From NCBI GenBank assembly GCA_017303995.1, contig JAFLBE010000007.1:26163-90162 (forward strand): DNA of 64,000 bases, written 5' to 3'. A program made the position numbers and the translations under genes. The DNA is from Bacteroidota bacterium (lineage in GTDB: Bacteria > Bacteroidota > JABWAT01). Numbering within the stretch: the stretch's first letter is position 1; each line of letters starts with the position of its first letter. The notes beneath the pieces were generated by a model. It saw only the letters and a program-made list of their open reading frames with translations. It was not told where the DNA came from and did not search any database. Of this stretch, positions 7,426-60,507 are shown one piece after another.

Positions 7426-7962
7426 ATGTCAAACGGATTTACCATTTGGTTAACCGGACATAGCGGTGCAGGAAAATCAACGCTTGCCCATGCACTTGAA
7501 AAGGAATTGACGTCCCGTCATATTTCTACCGAAGTTTTGGATGGTGATATAGTGAGGACAAATTTGTCTCAGGGATTAACTTTTTCACCTGAGGACAGGA
7601 ACATCAATGTTCAGCGGATCGGATTTGTTGCTTCGTTGCTTTCAAAGCATGGTGTAGGTGTTATTGTTTCAGCAATTTCCCCTTACAGGACGGCCCGGGA
7701 AAGCGTCAGGAAGTCAATTCCGGGATTTGTTGAGGTTTATGTGAATTGCCCGGTTGAAGAATGTGAACGCCGTGACGTGAAAGGACTTTATAAAAAAGCT
7801 AGAAACGGTGAAATCCCATCTTTTACCGGAATTAACGATCCATATGAACCACCTTTAAATCCTGAAGTGGAAGTCAGAACCGACCTGGAATCCCTTCAGG
7901 AATCCACCAGAAAAATCATCTGCTTTCTGGAACAACAAAATTTAATCGGGGAAATCAAATGA
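7426..7962 (+). CDS. cysC: Adenylylsulfate (APS) kinase
   Basis: P-loop [17 protein letters not shown] motif, [12 protein letters not shown]. Confidence 0.9.
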
Positions 7963-8840
7963 ATCAGCTTGATCAGTTGGAAGCCAGAAGTGTTTACATT
8001 TTTCGTGAAGCTTATGCCAATTTCAAAAATTTGTGTATGCTTTGGTCCATCGGGAAAGACAGTACTGTTTTGTTGTGGCTGGCCAGAAAAGCCTTTTTTG
8101 GTCATGTTCCATTTCCTCTGGTTCACATCGACACACATTATAAAATCCCGGCCATGATTGAATACAGAAATAAACTTGCTCTGGAGTTTAATCTGAATTT
8201 GATTTATGGTGAGAATACCGAAGCGTTGGCGAATAAACTGACCTTTCCTGATGGCAATGTTGACCGGCTGACCTGCTGTAAAAACCTGAAAGCGGATGCT
8301 TTGAAAAACACACTTTCAGGTGATTGGCCACGCTACAAATTGAATCATTCCAATGGCGAATTTGATCTGGACACAAACAGGGAAGCCTACACAGGCGTTA
8401 TTGTAGGGGCCCGTGCAGATGAAGAAGGAAGCCGTTCAAAGGAACGTTATTTTTCACCAAGGAATAAAGAAAGTTCGTGGGATGTGGGTGACCAACCGCC
8501 TGAATTCTGGAATCAATATAAAACTGATTTTGCTCCCGGAACCCACGTCAGAATTCATCCGCTTTTAGATTGGACTGAACTGAATATCTGGGAATATATC
8601 GAGAGGGAAAAAATCCCGACGGTTGATTTGTACTACAATCAGGGCGAAGGAAAACGGTTTCGTTCTCTCGGTTGCTGGCCCTGTACACATTCTGTCGATT
8701 CTGAAAGCAGGAATGTTGTCGAAATTATTGAAGAATTGAAAACTGGTAAATTTGCTAACATTGCAGAAAGATCTGGTCGCGCTCAGGATAAAGAAGATGG
8801 TGGCGGACTCGAAACCCTCAGAAGAGAAGGATATATGTAG
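7959..8840 (+). CDS. cysD: Sulfate adenylyltransferase subunit 2
   Basis: PAPS-reductase-like ATP pyrophosphatase fold ([13 protein letters not shown]). It lies directly upstream of cysN. Confidence 0.9.
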
Positions 8841-8842
8841 GG

Positions 8843-8877
8843 GAATAACGAATAACGAATAGCGAATTACGAAACGA
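8843..8877. repeat. Heptanucleotide tandem-repeat array 1 (GAATAAC x2, GAATAGC, GAATTAC, GAAACGA) in the cysD-cysN spacer
   Basis: Exact period-7 phasing read directly. It is followed by AGTTCTGCGATGCC (8878-8891) and then a CCCCCTCC hairpin. Confidence 0.7.
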
Positions 8878-8929
8878 TAGTTCTGCGATGCCAATTCAGA
8901 ATAATGGAAAACACCATTTTCTGAAATAC

Positions 8930-8948
8930 CCCCCTCCAACGGAGGGGG
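8930..8948. repeat. GC hairpin CCCCCTCC-aac-GGAGGGGG, a member of the CCCCTCC hairpin family
   Basis: Perfect 8-bp inverted repeat. The same stem sequence recurs at 38546-38566, 41433-41455 and 41513-41533. Confidence 0.7.
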
Positions 8949-8997
8949 AATGGGGGTGGGTTGGTATGTTTACTCCTGAAAACACGAAAAAATAAAA

Positions 8998-12264: not shown

Positions 12265-12346
12265 AAGTTGTGGTTTGATATCATGGAATATGAATTTCGT
12301 ACCCTATACCGCCCCGAAGCTAGTTTGGAGTCCTCACTTCGTTCGG

Positions 12347-12388
12347 CTTACCACTTATAACTTATAACTAGTGCTTACTTGTCTCTCT
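12347..12388. repeat. Heptanucleotide tandem-repeat array 2 (CTTACCA CTTATAA CTTATAA CTAGTGC TTACTTG...) overlapping the 3' end of the AAA ATPase gene
   Basis: Period-7 phasing. The reverse complement reads GTTATAA GTTATAA GTGGTAA, the same unit family as array 4. Confidence 0.6.
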
Positions 12389-14727: not shown

Positions 14728-14750
14728 AAACCCACCATCAAAATCCTGTC

Positions 14751-14813
14751 TTCTGACTCCAGACTCCTGACTTCTGACTCCTGCAATCTTTCTTCTGTCA
14801 CCTGAATTCTGTA
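14751..14813. repeat. Heptanucleotide tandem-repeat array 3 (TTCTGAC TCCAGAC TCCTGAC TTCTGAC TCCTGCA ATCTTTC TTCTGTC ACCTGAA TTCTGTA) upstream of gatB
   Basis: Nine phased 7-mers read directly. Unit YYCTGAC shares the TGAC/GTCA core with arrays 4 and 6. Confidence 0.7.
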
Positions 14814-16332: not shown

Positions 16333-16372
16333 GATGTCATCCCCGTCCCGAAAGCTTTCGGGACGGGGATCC
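16333..16372. repeat. TGTCATCC-family nested palindrome (ATCCCCGTCCCGAAAGC/TTTCGGGACGGGGAT)
   Basis: Perfect 17-bp inverted repeat headed by GATGTCATCC. Related copies are at 33251, 42966/43031, 45291 and 58042. Confidence 0.7.
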
Positions 16373-31835: not shown

Positions 31836-33209
31836 ATGAAGTTTTGGATAAAAAACAGTTTGGTTATTTTACTGGCAGGAATTCTTGTTGTTCCTGTTTC
31901 AGCCAAGTCAGCCAAAAGCAGAAAATCTGCTCCTGCTGTTCCGAAACTATCCTCTTTTCGTATTGATGATGTATATACCGACAGTATTAAATATCAAATC
32001 GTTGCCGATTTACTTGATAAAACACTTCGCCAAAAGGCTTACCGCAAAACCCGTTTTGGTATTCAGATTCAGGATGAATTGGGTAACCCTGTTTTCAGCC
32101 TGAACTCAAATTTTAAACTTAAGCCTGCCTCGACCCTTAAAATTGTTACCACTGCCGTTGCACTGGAAAAACTAGGACCAGATTTCCGTTATAAAACGGT
32201 AATTTCAACTGATGGTGAACTTGAAAATGGCATTCTTGATGGCAACCTGATTATTCACGGAACCGCTGACCCGCAACTATCCGGTTATTTCGATGGTGAA
32301 GTCATTTCAATCACTTCTGCCTGGGCCAATCAGATTCAGGAAATGGGTATTTCAAAAATTACAGGTTCTGTTTTCCTCGACAATTCCTACTACGCTGATG
32401 AAAACGGTAATGTCAAAACCAGGTTTGTTACAGTTGCCATGTTTGATCAGGCTGCAAAAAGCCAGCTTACCCAAACTGTAAAAAACAAAAAGGGTAAAGA
32501 AGTTAAAAGAAAAATTCGCCTCAGACGGTCTTCTTCCAGAAAACTTGTTCAAGTGAATATGAATCAATATCTCGGCAACTTGTTAACTTCAGAACTATAC
32601 AAAAGAAATCTGATTGAAACCAAAGAAGCTGAAACTGACTTTGACCTGCCAAAAGACATCCATCTTTCTGCACTTATTGTTCATGAGTCTGACCCATTAA
32701 GTGAGATCATCACCAGAACCAACAAGAAAAGTGATAACTTTTATGCTGATCAACTGGTTAGAACGCTCGGATATGAATTTTTGGGGACAGGAAATATTGA
32801 AGCGGGAATCAGAGTTATTGAAGGGTTTCTTCGTTTTCACATGAACATCAATGAATCAGAATATGATATGACAGACGGTTCTGGCCTAAGTCATGATAAT
32901 CAAATGTCAGCCAAAGTGCTGACCCGGATTCTGTCTTATATGTCAACTTCTACGCCAAACCGTGATTATTTTTACAACTCTCTTTCCATTCCAACTGTTG
33001 ACGGAACGCTTGCCAACCGCATCCACCATCCACTTGCAGAAAACATGAGAGGGAAAACCGGTTCAATCTCGGGCGTTGTAAGTCTAACGGGTTACATTTC
33101 GAGTAACTCAGGGAAAAATCTGGTTTTCAGTATTATGTGCAATGGCGGAAGTTCACGCAGGCTTAAATCTCTGGAAGATGAAATCTGTAAGTTATTGCTG
33201 AACCTTTGA
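31836..33209 (+). CDS. dacB: D-alanyl-D-alanine carboxypeptidase/endopeptidase (PBP4, peptidase S13)
   Basis: Signal peptide, ASTLK active-site serine motif, SDN-like motif (KKSDNFYAD), KTG (RGKTGS). The start was moved to MKFWIKN. Confidence 0.8.
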   Translation: MKFWIKNSLVILLAGILVVPVSAKSAKSRKSAPAVPKLSSFRIDDVYTDSIKYQIVADLLDKTLRQKAYRKTRFGIQIQDELGNPVFSLNSNFKLKPASTLKIVTTAVALEKLGPDFRYKTVISTDGELENGILDGNLIIHGTADPQLSGYFDGEVISITSAWANQIQEMGISKITGSVFLDNSYYADENGNVKTRFVTVAMFDQAAKSQLTQTVKNKKGKEVKRKIRLRRSSSRKLVQVNMNQYLGNLLTSELYKRNLIETKEAETDFDLPKDIHLSALIVHESDPLSEIITRTNKKSDNFYADQLVRTLGYEFLGTGNIEAGIRVIEGFLRFHMNINESEYDMTDGSGLSHDNQMSAKVLTRILSYMSTSTPNRDYFYNSLSIPTVDGTLANRIHHPLAENMRGKTGSISGVVSLTGYISSNSGKNLVFSIMCNGGSSRRLKSLEDEICKLLLNL

Positions 33210-33250
33210 TCCACTTGAGTTAAATTCCCAACAGGTTGCATTTCCACACT

Positions 33251-33299
33251 GTCATCCCCGTGAAGACGGGATAATGAAGTTCTGCGAAGCCATCCCGTA
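33251..33299. repeat. TGTCATCC-family element: GTCATCCCCGTGAAGACGGGAT plus an AAGTTCTGCGAAGCC module inside an ACGGGAT/ATCCCGT hairpin
   Basis: Read directly. The AAGTTCTGCGAAGC module is also at 58068-58082 and, as AGTTCTGCGATGCC, at 8878-8891. Confidence 0.65.
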
Positions 33300-33488
33300 T
33301 TAAGAGCATTGATCCAAGATCCCCAAAACGTTCGGGGTAAGCTAAGTCTCCAGGTTTCACCGGATCCGCGGTTCGTAAACGAACCTTGGACGGGAAGACA
33401 TCTGATTCAGAATCCTAATTGCATACCTATTTTCTCGCTTACCTTTAGTTCTAACTAACCTCTTAATCCCTATAACCCATTTTTCTTG

Positions 33489-34292
33489 CTACTGCTGATT
33501 TTCCATGGCAGGCTTATCAATTTCACGGTATTCAAAGCGGTGATGATATTGTCTTGTTGCTTTAATTCCTGACCGGTAATCGATCATTTCAAGAAAACTC
33601 TTTCCTGTTATCTTTTTTGATAACTTCAATAAAGGTGATCCAGAATTTGCATCAAAAAGTTCGACAAAATAATTCAAAGAATCAGTAGCTGTTTTAATAT
33701 TAACGGTAAATGGATTCAAGTATTTCAAAGAGTCTGTATTCATATCAAGTAAAGTAACTTCTTTACCGCCAGGGAACCCATTTTTCAGATAAACATTCCA
33801 CTTTGATAAAAATCGGGTATCTACAAGAAAGGTGTCAGGTAATTCCTGCTTCGTTTCATTTACAAATTCTTCACGGATTTTATTCCGGCTGCGCATAAAA
33901 TTCTCCTGAAAGGATGCATAGAGTCCGTTTGACAAAACACTGTCATTGCCGGTCCATCTTGATGTGTCCATTCTGAAAACTTCAAAATGACTCCAAATGT
34001 GCCTTCTCGTGGTTGAATCTGTTACAAGCCGGTAACCCGAATGCACAGAAGTGTCTCCGGGGTGCTTAAACCGAATTTCAAAATAGTCATAATTTCCAGC
34101 TTTGTAATATTGGTAAAGTTCAGTTCCTACGGTGTCTCCTTCAAGATTGGTGATCAGGTAAGAGGCTTCCTGTTCAAGCCACAAAGAAGGTAGTTTGAAA
34201 GTATAAGGAACACCAACATTTTTTAGATTATATATGATAAGGAAAGCAATACCCATTAAAACGAGAATCGAAACCCTGATAATGTATTTCAT
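33489..34292 (-). CDS. Hypothetical N-terminally anchored/exported protein
   Basis: 267-aa ORF with an N-terminal TM/signal segment and no recognisable motif. It is convergent with dacB. Confidence 0.5.
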   Translation of the reverse strand: MKYIIRVSILVLMGIAFLIIYNLKNVGVPYTFKLPSLWLEQEASYLITNLEGDTVGTELYQYYKAGNYDYFEIRFKHPGDTSVHSGYRLVTDSTTRRHIWSHFEVFRMDTSRWTGNDSVLSNGLYASFQENFMRSRNKIREEFVNETKQELPDTFLVDTRFLSKWNVYLKNGFPGGKEVTLLDMNTDSLKYLNPFTVNIKTATDSLNYFVELFDANSGSPLLKLSKKITGKSFLEMIDYRSGIKATRQYHHRFEYREIDKPAMENQQ

Positions 34293-37439: not shown

Positions 37440-38456
37440 ATGAAAGTGTATTACAGTGATGACGCCTCCCTTGATAATCTTAAAGGGAAAAAAGTTGCCG
37501 TTATCGGTTTCGGAAGTCAGGGACACGCACATTCCCTGAACCTGATGGACAGCGGAATGAATGTTACCGTTGGATTACGGAAAGAAAGTGCAAGCTGGGC
37601 AAAAGCTGAAGCTGCCGGTCTTGCTGTAAAAACAGTTTCTGATGCTTCTGCATGGGCCGATATCATCATGATTTTGCTTCCTGATCAGACTCAAAAAGCT
37701 GTTTATGATGCTGAAATTGCACCTCACTTGACTGCCGGAAAAACCCTGGCTTTTGCACACGGATTCAATATTCACTTCAAGGTTATTGTTCCTCCCGCAA
37801 ATGTGAACGTGATCATGATTGCACCCAAAAGCCCCGGTCACCTGGTTCGCCGTACTTACGTTCAGGGCAATGGTGTTCCTTGTTTGATTGCTATTCATCA
37901 GGATGCAACCGGCAATGCTTTGGCTTTGGCTTTGGCCTGGTCAAAGGGAATTGGCGGAACCTTCGCTGGTGTAATTGAAACTACTTTCAAAGATGAAACT
38001 GAAACTGATTTGTTTGGCGAGCAGGCTGTTCTTTGCGGCGGATCTGCAGAAATCATCAAAGCAGGTTTTGAGACTCTGGTTGAAGCAGGTTACCCAGCTG
38101 AACTGGCTTATTTCGAATGTATGCACGAACTGAAACTGATCGTTGACCTGTATTATGAAGGCGGACTTACCCGCATGAACTATTCAGTTTCTGATACCGC
38201 AGAATATGGTGGAATGACCCGCGGACCACGTCTGGTTACCGGCGAAACCAAAAAAGAAATGAAGAAAATTCTGGAAGAAATCCAATCCGGCCAATTTGCA
38301 AAAGAATTTTTGGCTGAAACCAATGGCGACAAAGCCAATTTTGAAAAGCTCCGGAAAGAAAACCGTGAACATCCGATTGAAAAAGTTGGAACCAAACTTC
38401 GCGGAATGATGAGCTTCCTGTTCAAAAAAGACAAACGTGAAGAAGTAGGCGTTTAA
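37440..38456 (+). CDS. ilvC: Ketol-acid reductoisomerase (class I)
   Basis: [20 protein letters not shown] motif, [11 protein letters not shown]. 338 aa. Confidence 0.95.
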
Positions 38457-38462
38457 TAACCA

Positions 38463-38634
38463 GTGACAAGTTACAAGTGACAAGTTACAAGTGGTAAGTT
38501 ATAAGTGACAAATTACAGGTTACGGGTGACACGAGAATAAAAACTCCCCTCCTTTTTAAGGAGGGGAAATCAGTCGTAAGACTGATGGGGTGGTTCGGTC
38601 TTTGGCCCACGTCCCATGTCCCCTGTCACTTGTC
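38463..38634. repeat. 172-bp composite intergenic element: left heptamer array 4 (10 units), CCCCTCC hairpin, right inverted heptamer array (MITE-like terminal inverted arrays)
   Basis: Left array GTGACAA GTTACAA ... GTGACAC (38463-38532). Hairpin CCCCTCCTT-ttt-AAGGAGGGG (38546-66). Right array GTCCCAT GTCCCCT GTCACTT GTCACCA (38607-34) is in inverse orientation. Confidence 0.65.
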
Positions 38635-38662
38635 ACCAGCATTTTAAAAGAAAGCAAGTTCA

Positions 38663-39760
38663 ATGAATTATAAGATTGTGGTCCTGCCCGGTGATGGAAT
38701 CGGACCTGAAGTTGTAGAAGCCTCCATTCCGGTCATGACCGAAGTTGGAAAAAAATTTGGCGTCAGTTTTGATTTTGATGTTCGTCTTTTTGGCGGATGC
38801 AGTTTTGATAAGTTCGGTGAGCCGGTAACTGTTGAAACACTCAGTGCCTGTGCAAACGCTGATGCCGTTCTGCTTGGTGCAGTTGGCGGACCGAAATGGG
38901 AATCACTTCCTCATGATAAAAAACCGGAAGCCGGTCTTCTGAAACTCAGAAAATCACTTGAACTCTATGCCAATATTCGTCCAGCCCGGGTTTACACCGG
39001 TCTTGCAGAAGGTTCAACACTGAAGAAGGAAGTTATTGCCGGCGTTGATCTAGTTGTTGTACGTGAATTAACTGGCGGATTGTATTTCGGTCAACCCCGG
39101 GGTATGACTGAAGACAAAGGCTGGAATACCATGGCCTACACCAAAGATGAAATCATCCGGATTGCAAAATCAGCTTTTGAACTTGCAAAAAAACGCAGAA
39201 AAACACTTTGTTCAGTAGATAAAGCCAATGTACTTGAAGTTTCCCAATTTTGGCGGAATGTGGTTCTTGAAGTTGCCCGTGATTATCCGGATGTTAAACT
39301 CAGCCACATGTATGTTGATAATGCCGCCATGCAATTAGTGCGAAATCCGGCCCAGTTTGACGTCATCCTGACCGAAAACATGTTCGGTGATATTCTCAGT
39401 GATATTGCTTCGATGATTCCCGGAAGTCTGGGTATGTTGCCTTCAGCATCACTTGGAACCAAATATGCGTTGTATGAACCCGTTCACGGTTCTGCACCTG
39501 ATATTGCCGGACAAAACAAAGCCAACCCCATTGCAACTATTGCTTCCATCGGAATGCTTTTTGATAACAGTCTCGGTATGCATATCGCCAGCGATTATAT
39601 TCAGAAATCCATTGAAAAAACACTTGAGCAAGGTTATCGGACCGCCGATATTTATTCTGAGGGAACCACACTTCTCGGTACGAAGGAAATGGCAGAAAAA
39701 GTAAAAGAATCCTTCCTTCAGATTTTTGAAGAACAGCCTTACGGATTTGCAGTAGCCTGA
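38663..39760 (+). CDS. leuB: 3-isopropylmalate dehydrogenase
   Basis: Isocitrate/isopropylmalate dehydrogenase family; NMFGDILSD signature. 365 aa. Confidence 0.95.
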
Positions 39761-39791: not shown

Positions 39792-41387
39792 ATGGCAGAA
39801 AAAATCATCATCTTCGACACCACCCTGAGGGACGGCGAACAATCCCCGGGTGCATCTTTGAACGTGTACGAAAAGGTGGAGATCGCCCGTCAGCTAGAAC
39901 GTATGAAAGTTGATGTGATTGAAGCCGGTTTCCCGGTTTCGTCACCAGCTCAGTTCGAAGCGGTTCAACGGATAGCAGATCAATCCACTGTGACGATTGC
40001 CGGTCTATGCCGTGCGGTTGAAAAAGATATTCTTGTTGCTTCTGATGCACTTAAAAATGCTAAAAAGAAACGGATTCATACTTTTTCAAGCACTTCTGAT
40101 ATTCATATTCTCGGGAAATTCGGTGATAACCGTTATGGGGTTTCACTTGATGAAAAACGTCAGACTGTCCTGAAAATGTCGGTTGATGCAGTGAAATATG
40201 CAAAAACATTCACACAGGATGTTGAGTATTCTGCTGAAGATGCTGGCAGGACGGATATCGGATATTTGTGCGATGTTATCGAAGCCGTGATTGCAGCCGG
40301 AGCTACAACTGTCAATATCCCGGATACAACCGGTTATTGTATGCCTCTGGAATTCGGGGCAAAAATTGCCGAACTGAAACGCCGTGTGAAAAATATTGAC
40401 CAGGCGGTTATTTCAGTCCATTGCCATAATGATCTTGGGCTGGCAGTTGCCAATTCGCTGTCTGCCATTTCAAACGGTGCCCGTCAGGTTGAATGTACGA
40501 TCAACGGAATCGGTGAACGTGCAGGCAATGCGTCCATGGAAGAAATCGTTATGGCATTGAAAGTCAGGAAAGATCTCTGGGCATTTTACACCGATATTAT
40601 CTCCGAAGAAATTTCCAATTCGTCAAAAATGGTTTCCGGTTTTACCGGGATGATCATTCAGCCTAATAAAGCTATTGTAGGTGATAATGCTTTTGCCCAT
40701 GAATCTGGTATTCATCAGGATGGCATGCTGAAAAACCGGGATACTTACGAGATCATGAAGCCGGAAGATGTGGGTATCACCCATAACCGTATTGTTCTGG
40801 GTCGACATTCCGGACGTCATGGCCTGGTTGCCAGAATGAAAGCTTTGGGTTACGAATTGTCTCCGGCAGAGCTTGACGAGATTTACGAAAAATTCCTTGT
40901 CATTGCAGACCGCAAAAAAGAAGTTTATGACGAAGATCTTCGGGTTCTGATGGGCGAAGAAGTCCAGAAACAATACGAAGAACAATATTATCAGCTCGAT
41001 TATCTGCAGGTGACTCTGGGAACTTCAATAATTCCGACTGCCACGGTTCGGGTAAAAGCGAAAGACAAAATTATTCAGGAATCGTCCGTTGGTGACGGAC
41101 CCGTTGATGCCGCCTATAAAGCAGTTGAACGTGCACTGAAAATTCATGTAAATATCGAAAATTACCAGGTCAGGTCGGTAACCGGTGGCCGTGATGCTGT
41201 TGGTGAAGTGATTATCAGAATCAGGGATGCTGGAAAAGCCTTTACCGGAAAGGGAAATTCAACTGATATCGTTGAAGCTTCAGTTCGTGCATTTTTGAAT
41301 GCCCTGAACCACAAAAAACAATTTGAAAAAGACCGTCAGGAACAAACAGAAAATATCTGGCAGGATAATCCGGTCAGGTTTGTTTGA
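39792..41387 (+). CDS. leuA: 2-isopropylmalate synthase (long form with LeuA dimerisation/regulatory domain)
   Basis: FDTTLRDGEQSPG, HCHNDLGLAVANSL, and a C-terminal LeuA allosteric domain. 531 aa. Confidence 0.9.
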   Translation: MAEKIIIFDTTLRDGEQSPGASLNVYEKVEIARQLERMKVDVIEAGFPVSSPAQFEAVQRIADQSTVTIAGLCRAVEKDILVASDALKNAKKKRIHTFSSTSDIHILGKFGDNRYGVSLDEKRQTVLKMSVDAVKYAKTFTQDVEYSAEDAGRTDIGYLCDVIEAVIAAGATTVNIPDTTGYCMPLEFGAKIAELKRRVKNIDQAVISVHCHNDLGLAVANSLSAISNGARQVECTINGIGERAGNASMEEIVMALKVRKDLWAFYTDIISEEISNSSKMVSGFTGMIIQPNKAIVGDNAFAHESGIHQDGMLKNRDTYEIMKPEDVGITHNRIVLGRHSGRHGLVARMKALGYELSPAELDEIYEKFLVIADRKKEVYDEDLRVLMGEEVQKQYEEQYYQLDYLQVTLGTSIIPTATVRVKAKDKIIQESSVGDGPVDAAYKAVERALKIHVNIENYQVRSVTGGRDAVGEVIIRIRDAGKAFTGKGNSTDIVEASVRAFLNALNHKKQFEKDRQEQTENIWQDNPVRFV

Positions 41388-41533
41388 GGTTACGGGTCAC
41401 AGATAACGGGTCACAGGTTAATGTGTGAAATTCCCCTCCTTTTATAAAGGAGGGGTGGCGAAGCCGGGGTGGTTTTGTTTTGGGTTTAGATAATAACTAA
41501 ACCTCCCCTAGCCCCTCCTTTGAAAAAGGAGGG
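41388..41533. repeat. Composite intergenic element: heptamer array 5 (GGTTACG GGTCACA GATAACG GGTCACA GGTTAAT GTGTGAA) plus two CCCCTCC hairpins
   Basis: Array 41388-41429. Hairpins CCCCTCCTTTTA-taa-AGGAGGGG (41433-55) and CCCTCCTTT-gaaa-AAGGAGGG (41513-33). It lies in the 250-bp leuA-leuC spacer. Confidence 0.65.
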
Positions 41534-41637
41534 AAATCTTCTCCAAAAAGCTAACAGCCAATAGCTAATAGATTTCATTTTACACCTTAACCCTTATGCC
41601 TTAACCCTATTTATATAACAAAAGGAAAGCTTCTCAA

Positions 41638-42965: not shown

Positions 42966-43060
42966 GATGTCATCCCGGACTTAGCCTGCCCCGAACGCTT
43001 TCGGGGATTCGGGATCCAGTTTTTTTAACAATGGATCCTGACTTTCGTCAGGATGACACA
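42966..43060. repeat. Head-to-head pair of TGTCATCC-family palindromes in the leuC-leuD spacer
   Basis: P1 is GTCATCCCGGAC...CCCCGAAcgctTTCGGGG...CGGGAT (42966-43017). P2 is ATCCTGACtttcGTCAGGATGACAC (43031-43060), whose reverse complement starts TGTCATCCTGAC. They flank a T7 run. Confidence 0.65.
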
Positions 43061-45290: not shown

Positions 45291-45319
45291 TGTCATTCCG
45301 GCTCCGGCCGGAATTGACG
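45291..45319. repeat. TGTCATTCC-family palindrome (TGTCATTCCGGCTCCGGCCGGAATTGACG) between cimA and thrA
   Basis: ATTCCGGC...GCCGGAAT inverted repeat read directly; the next run is ttttaaaaa. Confidence 0.6.
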
Positions 45320-57972: not shown

Positions 57973-58041
57973 TTTTAGGGGCAGCTGGTCTGCCTCTTTT
58001 TTTCAGTTGGGGTAATTTCCGTATTTCTTGGGATGCCCATC

Positions 58042-59482: not shown

Positions 59483-59517
59483 GTATCACTTGCCACTTGT
59501 CACTTACCACTTATTTT
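59483..59517. repeat. Heptanucleotide tandem-repeat array 6 (GTATCAC TTGCCAC TTGTCAC TTACCAC TTATTTT) in the dusB 5' region
   Basis: Period-7 phasing. TTGTCAC is the reverse complement of the GTGACAA unit of array 4. Confidence 0.65.
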
Positions 59518-59532
59518 CCCTACCTTTGCAAC

Positions 59533-60507
59533 ATGTTAAAAATTGGCGATAAAATACAAATACAAAATGCTGTTGTTCTTGCTCCGATGGAGGAAGTGAC
59601 AGATTTACCATTCCGCAAAATTTGCAAAGAGAATGGTGCAGACATCGTTTACACTGAATTCATTCCTTCTGAAGCCATTATCCGGAATGCAGCAAAATCT
59701 CTGCGAAAAATGGAAATTGCAGACGAAGAACGTCCTGTTTCTATTCAGATTTATGGAAATCAGACTGAAGTGATGGTCAAGGCTGCAAAGCTTGCTGAAG
59801 CCTTAAATCCCGATTTTCTTGATATCAATTACGGTTGCCCGGCCAAAAAAATTGCAGGGCGTGGAGCAGGAAGTGGTCTGCTATGTTATCCTGATCTGAT
59901 GGAAACCATAACAAGAGAAATTGTTAATGCCTTATCAATCCCAGTAACTGCCAAAACCCGGATTGGTTGGGATTCCGACTCTATTTCAATAATTGAAACT
60001 ACAAAACGACTTGAACAGCAGGGAATTAAAGCACTAACCATCCACGGCAGGACGAAAGCTCAAATGTTTGAAGGAACTGCCGATTGGGATTGGATTGGAA
60101 AGGCAAAGGCCTCTGCCGGTATTCCAATAATTGGAAATGGTGATATTACAACTCCTGAATTTGCTCTGGAAGTTTTCAACCGGTCTGGGGTCGATGGTGT
60201 TATGATTGGACGTGGGTCTTACGGAAACCCGTGGATTTTCAGCCGCACAAAGCACTTGTTAAATACGGGGATTTTGCTACCAGAACCAGAAATTGAAGAG
60301 AAAGTTGAAGTGATGCTCAGGCATCTCAGATATTCAATGGCATGTAAAGGTCAGCACGGATTGGTATCCTTCAGAAAACACTATCCCAATTATCTGAAGG
60401 GATTTGAAAATGCAGCAAAACTCAGAAGTCAGCTTGTTCTGATTAATACTTACGAGCAGATTGCTGAAACGGTAATGAATTTTCTCGGGATTAAATGCGT
60501 AGCCTGA
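59533..60507 (+). CDS. dusB: tRNA-dihydrouridine synthase
   Basis: FMN TIM-barrel motifs LAPMEEVTDLPFR, INYGCPAKK, TIHGRT. The start was moved to MLKIGDK. Confidence 0.85.
   Translation: MLKIGDKIQIQNAVVLAPMEEVTDLPFRKICKENGADIVYTEFIPSEAIIRNAAKSLRKMEIADEERPVSIQIYGNQTEVMVKAAKLAEALNPDFLDINYGCPAKKIAGRGAGSGLLCYPDLMETITREIVNALSIPVTAKTRIGWDSDSISIIETTKRLEQQGIKALTIHGRTKAQMFEGTADWDWIGKAKASAGIPIIGNGDITTPEFALEVFNRSGVDGVMIGRGSYGNPWIFSRTKHLLNTGILLPEPEIEEKVEVMLRHLRYSMACKGQHGLVSFRKHYPNYLKGFENAAKLRSQLVLINTYEQIAETVMNFLGIKCVA

Follow-up and report, generated by a model that had tools for sequence, protein, structure and literature searches.

Heptanucleotide arrays and a putative intrastrand triplex motif in the ilvC-leuB spacer of an Ignavibacteria-like Bacteroidota bacterium

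The intrastrand triplex motif was first noticed as BoxC in Escherichia coli, was described anew by Hoyne et al. 2000, who called it a PIT element, in the account given by PMC4666352, and was surveyed under the name of 'TM' motifs by Holder et al. 2015 (Nucleic Acids Research, NAR; PMC4666352). Motifs of this kind form a triplex in vitro as single strands, lie in intergenic regions, act neither as promoters nor as terminators and, in E. coli, mark loci that are variable; they have no bias in orientation relative to genes there, and inverted pairs account for 5 of 23 motifs; purine-motif triplexes do not form in RNA, and such structures stall polymerases in vitro (PMC4666352). Among the long simple repeats of bacteria, heptamers are the commonest, and strains differ in them by indels that come in steps of 7 nt (PMC4679880, with its summary of Mrazek et al. 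2007), with TAACTGA repeats (MacGregor 2015, PMC4679880) and GGGNATC repeats (Rehm et al. 2015, PMC4692102) among those described. Here we describe the spacer between ilvC and leuB in a stretch of 64,000 nucleotides (the window) from contig JAFLBE010000007.1, in which an earlier note had taken the 172 bp at positions 38463-38634 for an element like a miniature inverted-repeat transposable element (MITE). This region is not a discrete mobile element but a fast-changing patchwork of two known bacterial repeat kinds.

Heptamer repeats of the STRR kind were reportedly described in cyanobacteria by Mazel et al. 1990, and Elhai et al. 2008 (Genome Res 18:1484) are said to have found small dispersed repeats (SDR) of 21-27 nt nested in tandem heptameric repeats of Nostoc. 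Neisseria intergenic mosaic elements are likewise mosaic intergenic repeats. We consider it rather probable, though well short of assured, that the ilvC-leuB spacer is a lineage-specific, hypervariable intergenic mosaic of two co-localising repeat classes, heptamers like those of STRR or of long simple sequence repeats (LSSR) and a triplex motif, and that it constitutes an instability hot spot tolerated by the operon. Its anatomy, the excess of its motifs over chance, the conservation of the mirror rule, the absence from sister species and the change between strains by heptamers or core replacement are observed directly.

The central module and its mirror segment

The CCCCTCC hairpin earlier placed in the centre of the region is real and slightly longer than had been thought, with a 10-bp stem (TCCCCTCCTT/AAGGAGGGGA; whole hairpin 38545-38567) that is 100% complementary. 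It is not isolated, being the likely duplex part of an intrastrand triplex motif; a second hairpin (H2) and the G-rich mirror segment TGGGGTGGTT had been overlooked. TGGGGTGGTT mirrors the purine arm AAGGAGGGGA exactly, except that each A has become T, and direct reading of the two segments in antiparallel orientation gives 10/10 canonical purine-motif triads (G*G-C, T*A-T). The homopurine arm is paired to a pyrimidine arm over 10 bp, beyond the 6-7 nt asked of such stems, and the segments follow one another as pyrimidine arm (5'), purine arm and reverse-Hoogsteen segment (3'), the order of class II. Loop 1 has 3 nt; loop 2 is a hairpin of about 18 nt and falls outside the short loops of the published searches (1-6 nt for ITxF; 0-10 nt for PIT, Hoyne et al.; PMC4666352). 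H2 appears in the minimum-energy and centroid folds of both RNA and DNA, and its loop reads GCAA instead of GTAA in strain L092. As judged from its sequence, the central module belongs to the class II purine-motif intrastrand triplex motifs, the kind that includes BoxC, PIT and TM, and its loop 2 holds a hairpin.

Perfect motifs with at least 7 triads, 2-12 nt in loop 1 and 0-30 nt in loop 2 were found four times in the window and never in 100 dinucleotide-preserving shuffles, and all four copies are intergenic. The plain hairpin pattern was observed 3 times against an expectation of 0.00. The first of the four motifs reads CCCCCTCC-AAC-GGAGGGGG-AAT-GGGGGTGG, with short loops, and loops of 3 nt are found both there and in the minus-strand motif at 41500. 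The latter forms an inverted pair with the plus-strand motif of the leuA-leuC spacer, which carries a small hairpin, TGGCGAAGCC, in its loop 2.

The pattern CCCCTCC N2-12 GGAGGGG N0-30 GGGGTGG, which fixes 7 nt per segment, was present in at least 120 public metagenome contigs, with a G+C content of 0.28 to 0.71, and in at least 120 viral contigs (IMG/VR). The first stem base pair that the pattern leaves free was then compared with the first free base of the third segment, to see whether the one predicts the other. The mirror relation held at unconstrained positions in the 145 metagenome and 150 viral copies: A in the purine arm was matched by T in 38/39 metagenome and 28/29 viral cases, and G by G in 71/71 and 68/73 cases, respectively, in counts that include related copies. 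All four purine dinucleotides covaried as a mirror as well (in metagenome copies, GG with GG, 31; AA with TT, 12; GA with GT, 7; AG with TG, 6). Neither a plain hairpin nor a quadruplex nor a direct repeat would produce this covariation, which provides comparative evidence that the third segment, beyond the hairpin alone, is maintained. In copies with a pyrimidine in the 'purine' arm, C was accompanied by C in the third segment (6/7 metagenome, 7/12 viral) and T by A (3/3 and 2/2), in small numbers of related copies; this pattern is unexplained by the standard triad rules.

The G-rich half of the module (GGAGGGG ... GGGGTGG) could alternatively be a G-quadruplex, with the C-rich arm giving a hairpin/quadruplex switch and the triplex being incidental. 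GC-rich relatives read GGGGAGGGG-TT-GGGGGTGGGGG, a canonical four-tract motif, and G-rich heptamer repeats form quadruplexes in Xanthomonas and Nostoc (PMC4692102). However, a quadruplex predicts neither the mirror relation seen beyond the G tracts (A to T in 38/39, AA to TT, GA to GT and AG to TG) nor a conserved complementary pyrimidine arm, and the tracts of the window copy (GG/GGGG/GGGG/GG only) would allow two tetrads at most. We regard this alternative as very improbable.

In metagenome copies, the length of the linker that joins the purine arm to the third segment has a bimodal distribution, with 2-3 nt in 95/146 and 10-28 nt in 40/146, and 37 of the 40 long linkers fold as hairpins with many different stem sequences. 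The window copy belongs to this hairpin-in-loop-2 subtype, which exceeds the published loop limits (6 or 10 nt) and would therefore be missed by both published searches. Among the viral contigs (L216-L295 and further ones, e.g. L287, L234, L237, L241 and L272), several carry 3-6 copies of the motif in a single orientation with conserved flanks, and in some (L237) the motif may fall within the 5' end of paralogous open reading frames (ORFs).

The module shares with BoxC, PIT and TMECO the succession of a 5' pyrimidine arm, loop, purine arm, loop and 3' G/T mirror segment on one strand, G/C-rich arms of 7-10 nt, a strictly intergenic location, a frequency far above that of shuffled sequence, inverted pairs at times (here 41433+ / 41533-) and loci that vary between close strains. 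The TMECO/BoxC pattern is CCCTCNCCC N3-6 GGGNGAGGG N3 GGGNGAGGG and belongs to Proteobacteria, whereas the pattern found here is CCCCTCC/GGAGGGG/GGGGTGG in an Ignavibacteria-like Bacteroidota, with an 18-nt hairpin as loop 2. Because sequence, host and loop 2 differ, the motif is not TMECO/BoxC in the strict sense. It also differs in being embedded in heptamer arrays, PMC4666352 mentioning neither heptamers nor hairpin loops, and in being common in viral contigs, whereas TMECO was not found on mobile elements (PMC4666352). The element is not a new class; what is new is the hairpin-in-loop-2 subtype, defined here and common in metagenome and viral contigs, its co-localisation with inverted heptamer arrays, the lineage, the covariation support for the mirror rule and the heptamer unit family. 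The covariation bears on the long-open question of whether such triplexes matter in cells.

Heptamer arrays and their co-localisation with triplex motifs

The left array begins 6 nt past the ilvC stop codon, and its ten phased heptamers are present exactly as first listed (GTGACAA GTTACAA GTGACAA GTTACAA GTGGTAA GTTATAA GTGACAA ATTACAG GTTACGG GTGACAC). The period-7 signal persisted under a formal tandem-repeat finder, Tandem Repeats Finder (TRF), on both sides of the core. On the left, TRF called 38462-38523 with period 7, 8.9 copies, 74% matches and a score of 61, and also period 14 with 83% matches and a score of 84; on the right, it called a period-7 array at 38606-38627. The inverse units reported for the right end (GTCCCAT GTCCCCT GTCACTT GTCACCA) are present and inverted (38611-38638), and the array runs 4 nt past position 38634, where the region had been closed. 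The units of the right array are inverse complements of those in the GTGACAA/GGGACAT family, and in inverted orientation the two arrays are complementary over 20 nt (85%) and over 13 nt (92%).

A sliding self-match scan of the window with periods 2-14 revealed enrichment of period 7 and its double, 14, only; at a threshold of 21/28 matches (periods 3-12), period 7 gave 5 segments and all other periods 0. As in heptanucleotide long simple sequence repeats, the arrays consist of head-to-tail 7-nt units beyond chance length, are intergenic and change in copy number by 7-nt steps between close strains. Their units (GTGACAA, GTTACAA etc.) and their non-cyanobacterial host do not fit the cyanobacterial STRR1-3, as the consensus sequences of these are reportedly given. 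The SDR of Nostoc, as they are said to be described, resemble the present case in being small hairpin elements within heptamer arrays that changed recently between close relatives; they differ in their sequences and cyanobacterial host, and the triplex mirror segment is reportedly not part of their description. With the TAACTGA repeats (MacGregor 2015, PMC4679880) and their kin, the arrays share the period of 7, the intergenic location and the frequent abutment on stop or start codons. Further features shared with the STRR, LSSR, TAACTGA and GGGNATC kinds are the mixing of related units in one array, a sporadic phylogenetic distribution the 7-nt strain steps and the existence of related species with shorter, repeat-free spacers. 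The present arrays differ in their unit family (GTGACAA/GTTACAA/GTTATAA/GGGACAT), in their non-cyanobacterial lineage and in forming inverted pairs around a structured core. The TRF consensus unit, reverse-complemented and permuted to TAACTTG, matches the TAACTGA unit (MacGregor 2015, PMC4679880) at only 5/7 positions.

Both repeat kinds occur in the same spacers. Of the 25 spacers with a length of 60 nt or more, 6 bear arrays, and all 3 that bear triplex motifs are among these 6 (p = 0.0087, or 0.0075 with weighting by length). Across 754 kb of metagenome loci that carry the triplex motif, period 7 was also the commonest array period, with 63 arrays, 10 of them at most 150 nt from a triplex motif and distributed over eight unrelated contigs. 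These data link two separately described repeat phenomena, heptanucleotide arrays and intrastrand triplex motifs; neither had previously been noted in this lineage, and the site is an essential operon for the biosynthesis of amino acids.

The 5' flank of the plus-strand motif in the leuA-leuC spacer, GTGAAATT (41421-41432), is in phase with the adjoining array in L088, L089 and L092 (GTGACAG GTGAAAA GTGAAAT); the window shares this flank but bears a different array type. The same flank stands beside the motif in an unrelated low-GC metagenome contig (L114). The flank of the triplex motif may act as a seed for arrays.

Variation between strains and sister species

The host is an Ignavibacteria-like Bacteroidota metagenome-assembled genome (MAG), and among GTDB representatives the IlvC of the window is nearest to Ignavibacteriales, with 78% identity (GTDB scan). 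Closer relatives, above this value, were obtained through protein search and LeuB look-up (MBN8704992.1 in the window, whose MAG has LeuA MBN8704993.1); exact-protein look-ups for the IlvC of the window and for the ORF at 7959-8840 gave no matching record. Contigs of the same species as the window (among them L088-L092) have an identical LeuB protein, whereas L082-L087 belong to a species with 92% IlvC identity and L094/L095 to one with 85%.

In the sister species, the ilvC-leuB and leuA-leuC spacers measure 73 and 33 nt (L082-L087) and 31 and 32 nt (L094/L095), respectively, and neither triplex motif nor period-7 array was found across the fully syntenic 21 kb. As neither repeat class is present in sister species, both represent a gain at the species level. 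The relatives provide the empty sites that the earlier note had thought worth looking for. Within the species, the genes from ilvB to cimA show 94-97% nucleotide identity and the repeat-free spacers are 83-100% identical, whereas the three repeat-bearing spacers reach only 68-82%. The ilvC-leuB spacer of the window has 206 nt and that of L088 has 207 nt, and in both L089 and L090 it measures 193 nt; its right array has two units fewer in L092, and the left array of the leuA-leuC spacer is 35 nt longer in L092 than in L088, so that lengths differ between strains by 14 and 35 nt.

Change also affects the cores. In L088-L091 the arrays are retained and the triplex core is swapped for a different, two-hairpin palindromic element that reads TGTCATTCCCGCGAAGGCGGGAATCCAG...CCTGACTTTCGTCAGGATGACA; a literature search on this alternative core (TGTCATTCCCGCGAAGGCGGGAATC; 'dRS3') yielded nothing relevant. 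Of the leuA-leuC pair, L088 and L089 have the minus-strand motif in degraded form only, which resembles the 'palindrome effect' deletions of E. coli (PMC4666352). Short-read contigs of the same species terminate inside the ilvC-leuB arrays or core (end of L081; starts of L091, L092 and L093), so that MAG assemblies break at such mosaics and variation between strains is obscured.

The replacement core is the two-hairpin version of a third repeat family, TGTCAT(Y)CC-hairpin-GG(R)AT, which contains ATTCCC-N8-GGGAAT and has four exact matches in the window, all on the plus strand, against 0.12 expected. The two-hairpin version is also present in the leuC-leuD spacer of all strains, where the copy of the window contains a nested insertion. 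No match to this family was found in Rfam.

In L089, the sequences that follow the stop codons of ilvC and leuA are nearly identical over roughly their first 25 nt (TAACCAGTGACAAGTTATAAGTGACAAG and TACCAGTGACAAGTTATAAGTGACAGG; L089:9805-9836 and L089:12723-12752), which suggests that one array was copied to the other, or that gene conversion took place between them, over a distance of 3 kb. Unlike in L089, the leuA-side array of the window is of a different unit type.

These observations bear on the proposal of a non-autonomous mobile element, MITE-like or REPIN-like, in which the arrays would be ends for a transposase encoded elsewhere and the structured core its cargo. Like MITEs, the region is below 200 bp, non-coding, inverted at its ends (20 nt at 85%), able to fold as a long hairpin and absent from the orthologous sites of relatives; in addition, the same arrays enclose different cores in different strains, and the near identity of the ilvC and leuA array starts in L089 would agree with mobility. 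Triplex motifs in GC-rich metagenome contigs often form REPIN-like inverted pairs 60-100 nt apart, and inverted heptamer arrays around small hairpins are also found in a Calditrichota MAG (L009). On the other hand, blastn-short found no second full-length copy in the window and 1.86 Mb of related loci, the only matches being orthologous and partial, and the flanks (...TAATAAC / CAGTGAC and GTCACCAG / CATTTTAAAAG) contain no target-site duplication. What had been called terminal inverted repeats turn out to be tandem arrays, which vary in their number of units from strain to strain and provide no fixed termini; arrays and triplex motifs are found independently of each other; and within the species the change occurs by heptamer units and exchange of the core, not by clean presence or absence. 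Since a second copy and a target-site duplication are lacking, the array ends vary and the parts are independent, the region is not classed as a MITE, and we consider a mobile element of this type unlikely. A parallel in overall construction is provided by BIME/REP, REPINs (PMC3116915) and the Neisseria mosaics, where operon spacers are likewise built from several short palindromic families with strain-variable module content and inverted doublets. Unlike BIME/REP, however, the spacer contains no REP-type GTAG-hairpin consensus, and BIMEs have no tandem heptamer arrays.

A broader proposal would make the arrays and the structured cores (the TGTCAT-hairpin element as well as triplex motifs, whether or not their loop 2 holds a hairpin) parts of one copying system, in which the arrays would serve as recombination or priming substrate for interchangeable cores and which would be patchily shared by the Ignavibacteria-like lineage, Calditrichota, cyanobacteria and phages. 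We give this proposal little chance; if it were true, the mirror covariation would show that the triplex fold itself is under selection in vivo.

Position in the ilv-leu operon and further repeats of the window

The spacer lies within the gene order ilvB-ilvN-ilvC-leuB-leuA, in the wider string ilvBNC-leuBA-leuCD, and the identity of both flanking genes is borne out by NCBIfam matches. The genes are co-oriented and no sense-strand terminator-like site was found among them, the only hairpin-plus-T-run match, at the central hairpin, being on the minus strand; this agrees with the earlier placement of the region inside a single ilv-leu transcription unit, from which its transcription would be expected. 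It could be argued that the spacer is an RNA-level cis element, whose hairpins and array pairing would act as exonuclease barrier, RNase III site or partial terminator and would determine how strongly ilvC is expressed relative to leuB, in the manner of REP/BIME elements in operons of E. coli. This would fit the location inside the co-oriented string, the presence of 3/4 window triplex motifs on the sense strand and the folding of the sense RNA, which is better than that of shuffles for both the ilvC-leuB element (z -4.45) and the leuA-leuC spacer (z -4.38).

Against an RNA-level role, sister species with the same operon lack the element, its content varies even within the species, terminator-like sites are missing from the sense strand, and PIT/TM elements were inactive as promoters or terminators in E. 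coli (PMC4666352). Metagenome copies show no orientation bias relative to neighbouring ORFs (16 sense, 15 antisense), which argues against a sense-RNA function for the triplex family. Searches of Rfam gave no match at gathering score in the window, L088 or L089, and at a permissive threshold (E up to 10) the element and the sister-strain spacers gave chance-level matches only. Such a role is improbable in our view; an incidental effect on mRNA stability is possible, but it is not what maintains the element. More specific candidates were rejected. For a sense-strand intrinsic terminator or attenuator, there is no G+C-rich hairpin followed by a U tract on that strand; an attenuator-like switch through CCCCUCC-GGGGUGG pairing would contain one mismatch and one wobble, in a family without orientation bias; and for a Shine-Dalgarno mimic or small ORF, AAGGAGGGG is located 18 nt upstream of the only nearby ATG, the ORF has 19 codons and the region is not conserved.

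An unstable mosaic tolerated by the operon could arise as follows. The plus strand would be the non-template strand for ilv-leu transcription, and it is probably the lagging-strand template, since GC skew is positive throughout and about 44/52 called genes are on this strand. When single-stranded, it may fold into a hairpin with the G/T third strand folded back in the major groove, or at least into two hairpins. Non-B structures of this type would hinder polymerases, and slippage, template switching and the deletion or replacement of short segments would follow. Stalling beside a short-period array would favour slippage in 7-nt steps, so that the arrays would keep expanding and contracting, and intramolecular template switching would make both sides palindromic, which would explain the inverted arrays. 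The element would then be a selfish or neutral instability hot spot, tolerated by the operon because it has no sense-strand terminator; in mRNA only the hairpins could form, and these may incidentally stabilise the upstream ilvC segment.

Several points weigh against this explanation. Arrays without a triplex motif also occur (12342, 14744 and 59484), and the link between motif and array instability is a correlation only, based on co-localisation in three spacers of one window. Loop 2, with its 18 nt or so, exceeds that of every biophysically tested triplex motif, and in E. coli the in vivo triplex footprint was negative (PMC4666352). Furthermore, the covariation figures are counts, not independent events, and the exchange of sequence between arrays, together with the core swap, could reflect an active copying or mobility mechanism. 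The element is a clean natural system for asking whether intrastrand triplex motifs drive local repeat instability.

Table 1. Coordinates of the repeats, motifs and flanking genes (positions in the window unless a contig is named)
Feature	Position	Strand	Evidence or remark
Left heptanucleotide array, 10 phased units, GTGACAA/GTTACAA family	38463..38532	+	sequence, TRF, periodicity scan
Pyrimidine arm (Y) TCCCCTCCTT	38545..38554	+	perfect 10-bp stem with 38558-38567
Purine arm (R) AAGGAGGGGA	38558..38567	+	sequence, motif finder, inverted-repeat analysis
Hairpin H2 (TCAGTC-GTAA-GACTGA) in loop 2 of the triplex motif	38570..38585	+	RNA and DNA folds
Third (reverse-Hoogsteen) segment TGGGGTGGTT	38586..38595	+	direct reading, motif finder, mirror covariation
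Right heptanucleotide array (CCCACGT CCCATGT CCCCTGT CACTTGT CACCA)	38604..38638	-	TRF, inverted repeats against left array
Perfect triplex motifs	8930-8959, 38545-38595, 41433-41474, 41500-41533	+, +, +, -	triplex finder
Second composite: heptamer array GAATAAC x4 (8839-8875) and triplex motif (8930-8959)	8839..8959	+	TRF, scan, finder
Third composite, leuA-leuC spacer: left array, two triplex motifs, right arrays (41544-41608)	41382..41608	+	scan, finder
Period-7 arrays	8839-8875, 12342-12369, 14744-14785, 38455-38530, 38604-38639, 41382-41421, 41544-41608, 59484-59515		scan; all intergenic
TGTCAT-hairpin family	16335-16370, 33250-33272, 42968-43008, 45291-45314, variant near 58036; L089:9866-9945	+ (four exact)	
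ilvC (ketol-acid reductoisomerase), upstream flank	37440..38456	+	NCBIfam NF004017, E 1.9e-165
leuB (3-isopropylmalate dehydrogenase), downstream flank	38663..39760	+	NCBIfam TIGR00169, E 1e-152
Arrays/elements of the ilv-leu locus of the Calditrichota MAG	L009: 540-660, 1527-1660, 8100-8205, 10248-10291, 11610-11800		

Further repeats were observed outside the ilv-leu spacers. At 33190-33499, the window contains a mosaic insert of about 300 nt, with a TGTCAT hairpin, other hairpins and a period-7-like tail, which is absent from L088 and L089 of the same species, where the spacer has about 90 nt. The insert is located exactly where the identity to these contigs falls, from about 91% on its right to about 76% on its left, which suggests a recombination break point beside repeats. 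In the region 59484-59545, the array CACTTGC CACTTGT CACTTAC CACTTAT lies directly upstream of TACCTTTG, a promoter-like motif of the Bacteroidota -7 type situated about 10 nt before the start codon of the next gene (ATG 59533), and a change in array length could shift the promoter spacing.

The ilv-leu locus of the Calditrichota MAG L009, where ilvC and leuB abut, holds nine period-7 arrays in 13 kb. Some of them are inverted pairs around small hairpins, and one is a direct pair around a hairpin element of the TGTCATCCCG type. The same locus carries a degenerate triplex-like motif, CCCCCTT-AGAA-AAGGGGGG-TA-GGGGGGTG.

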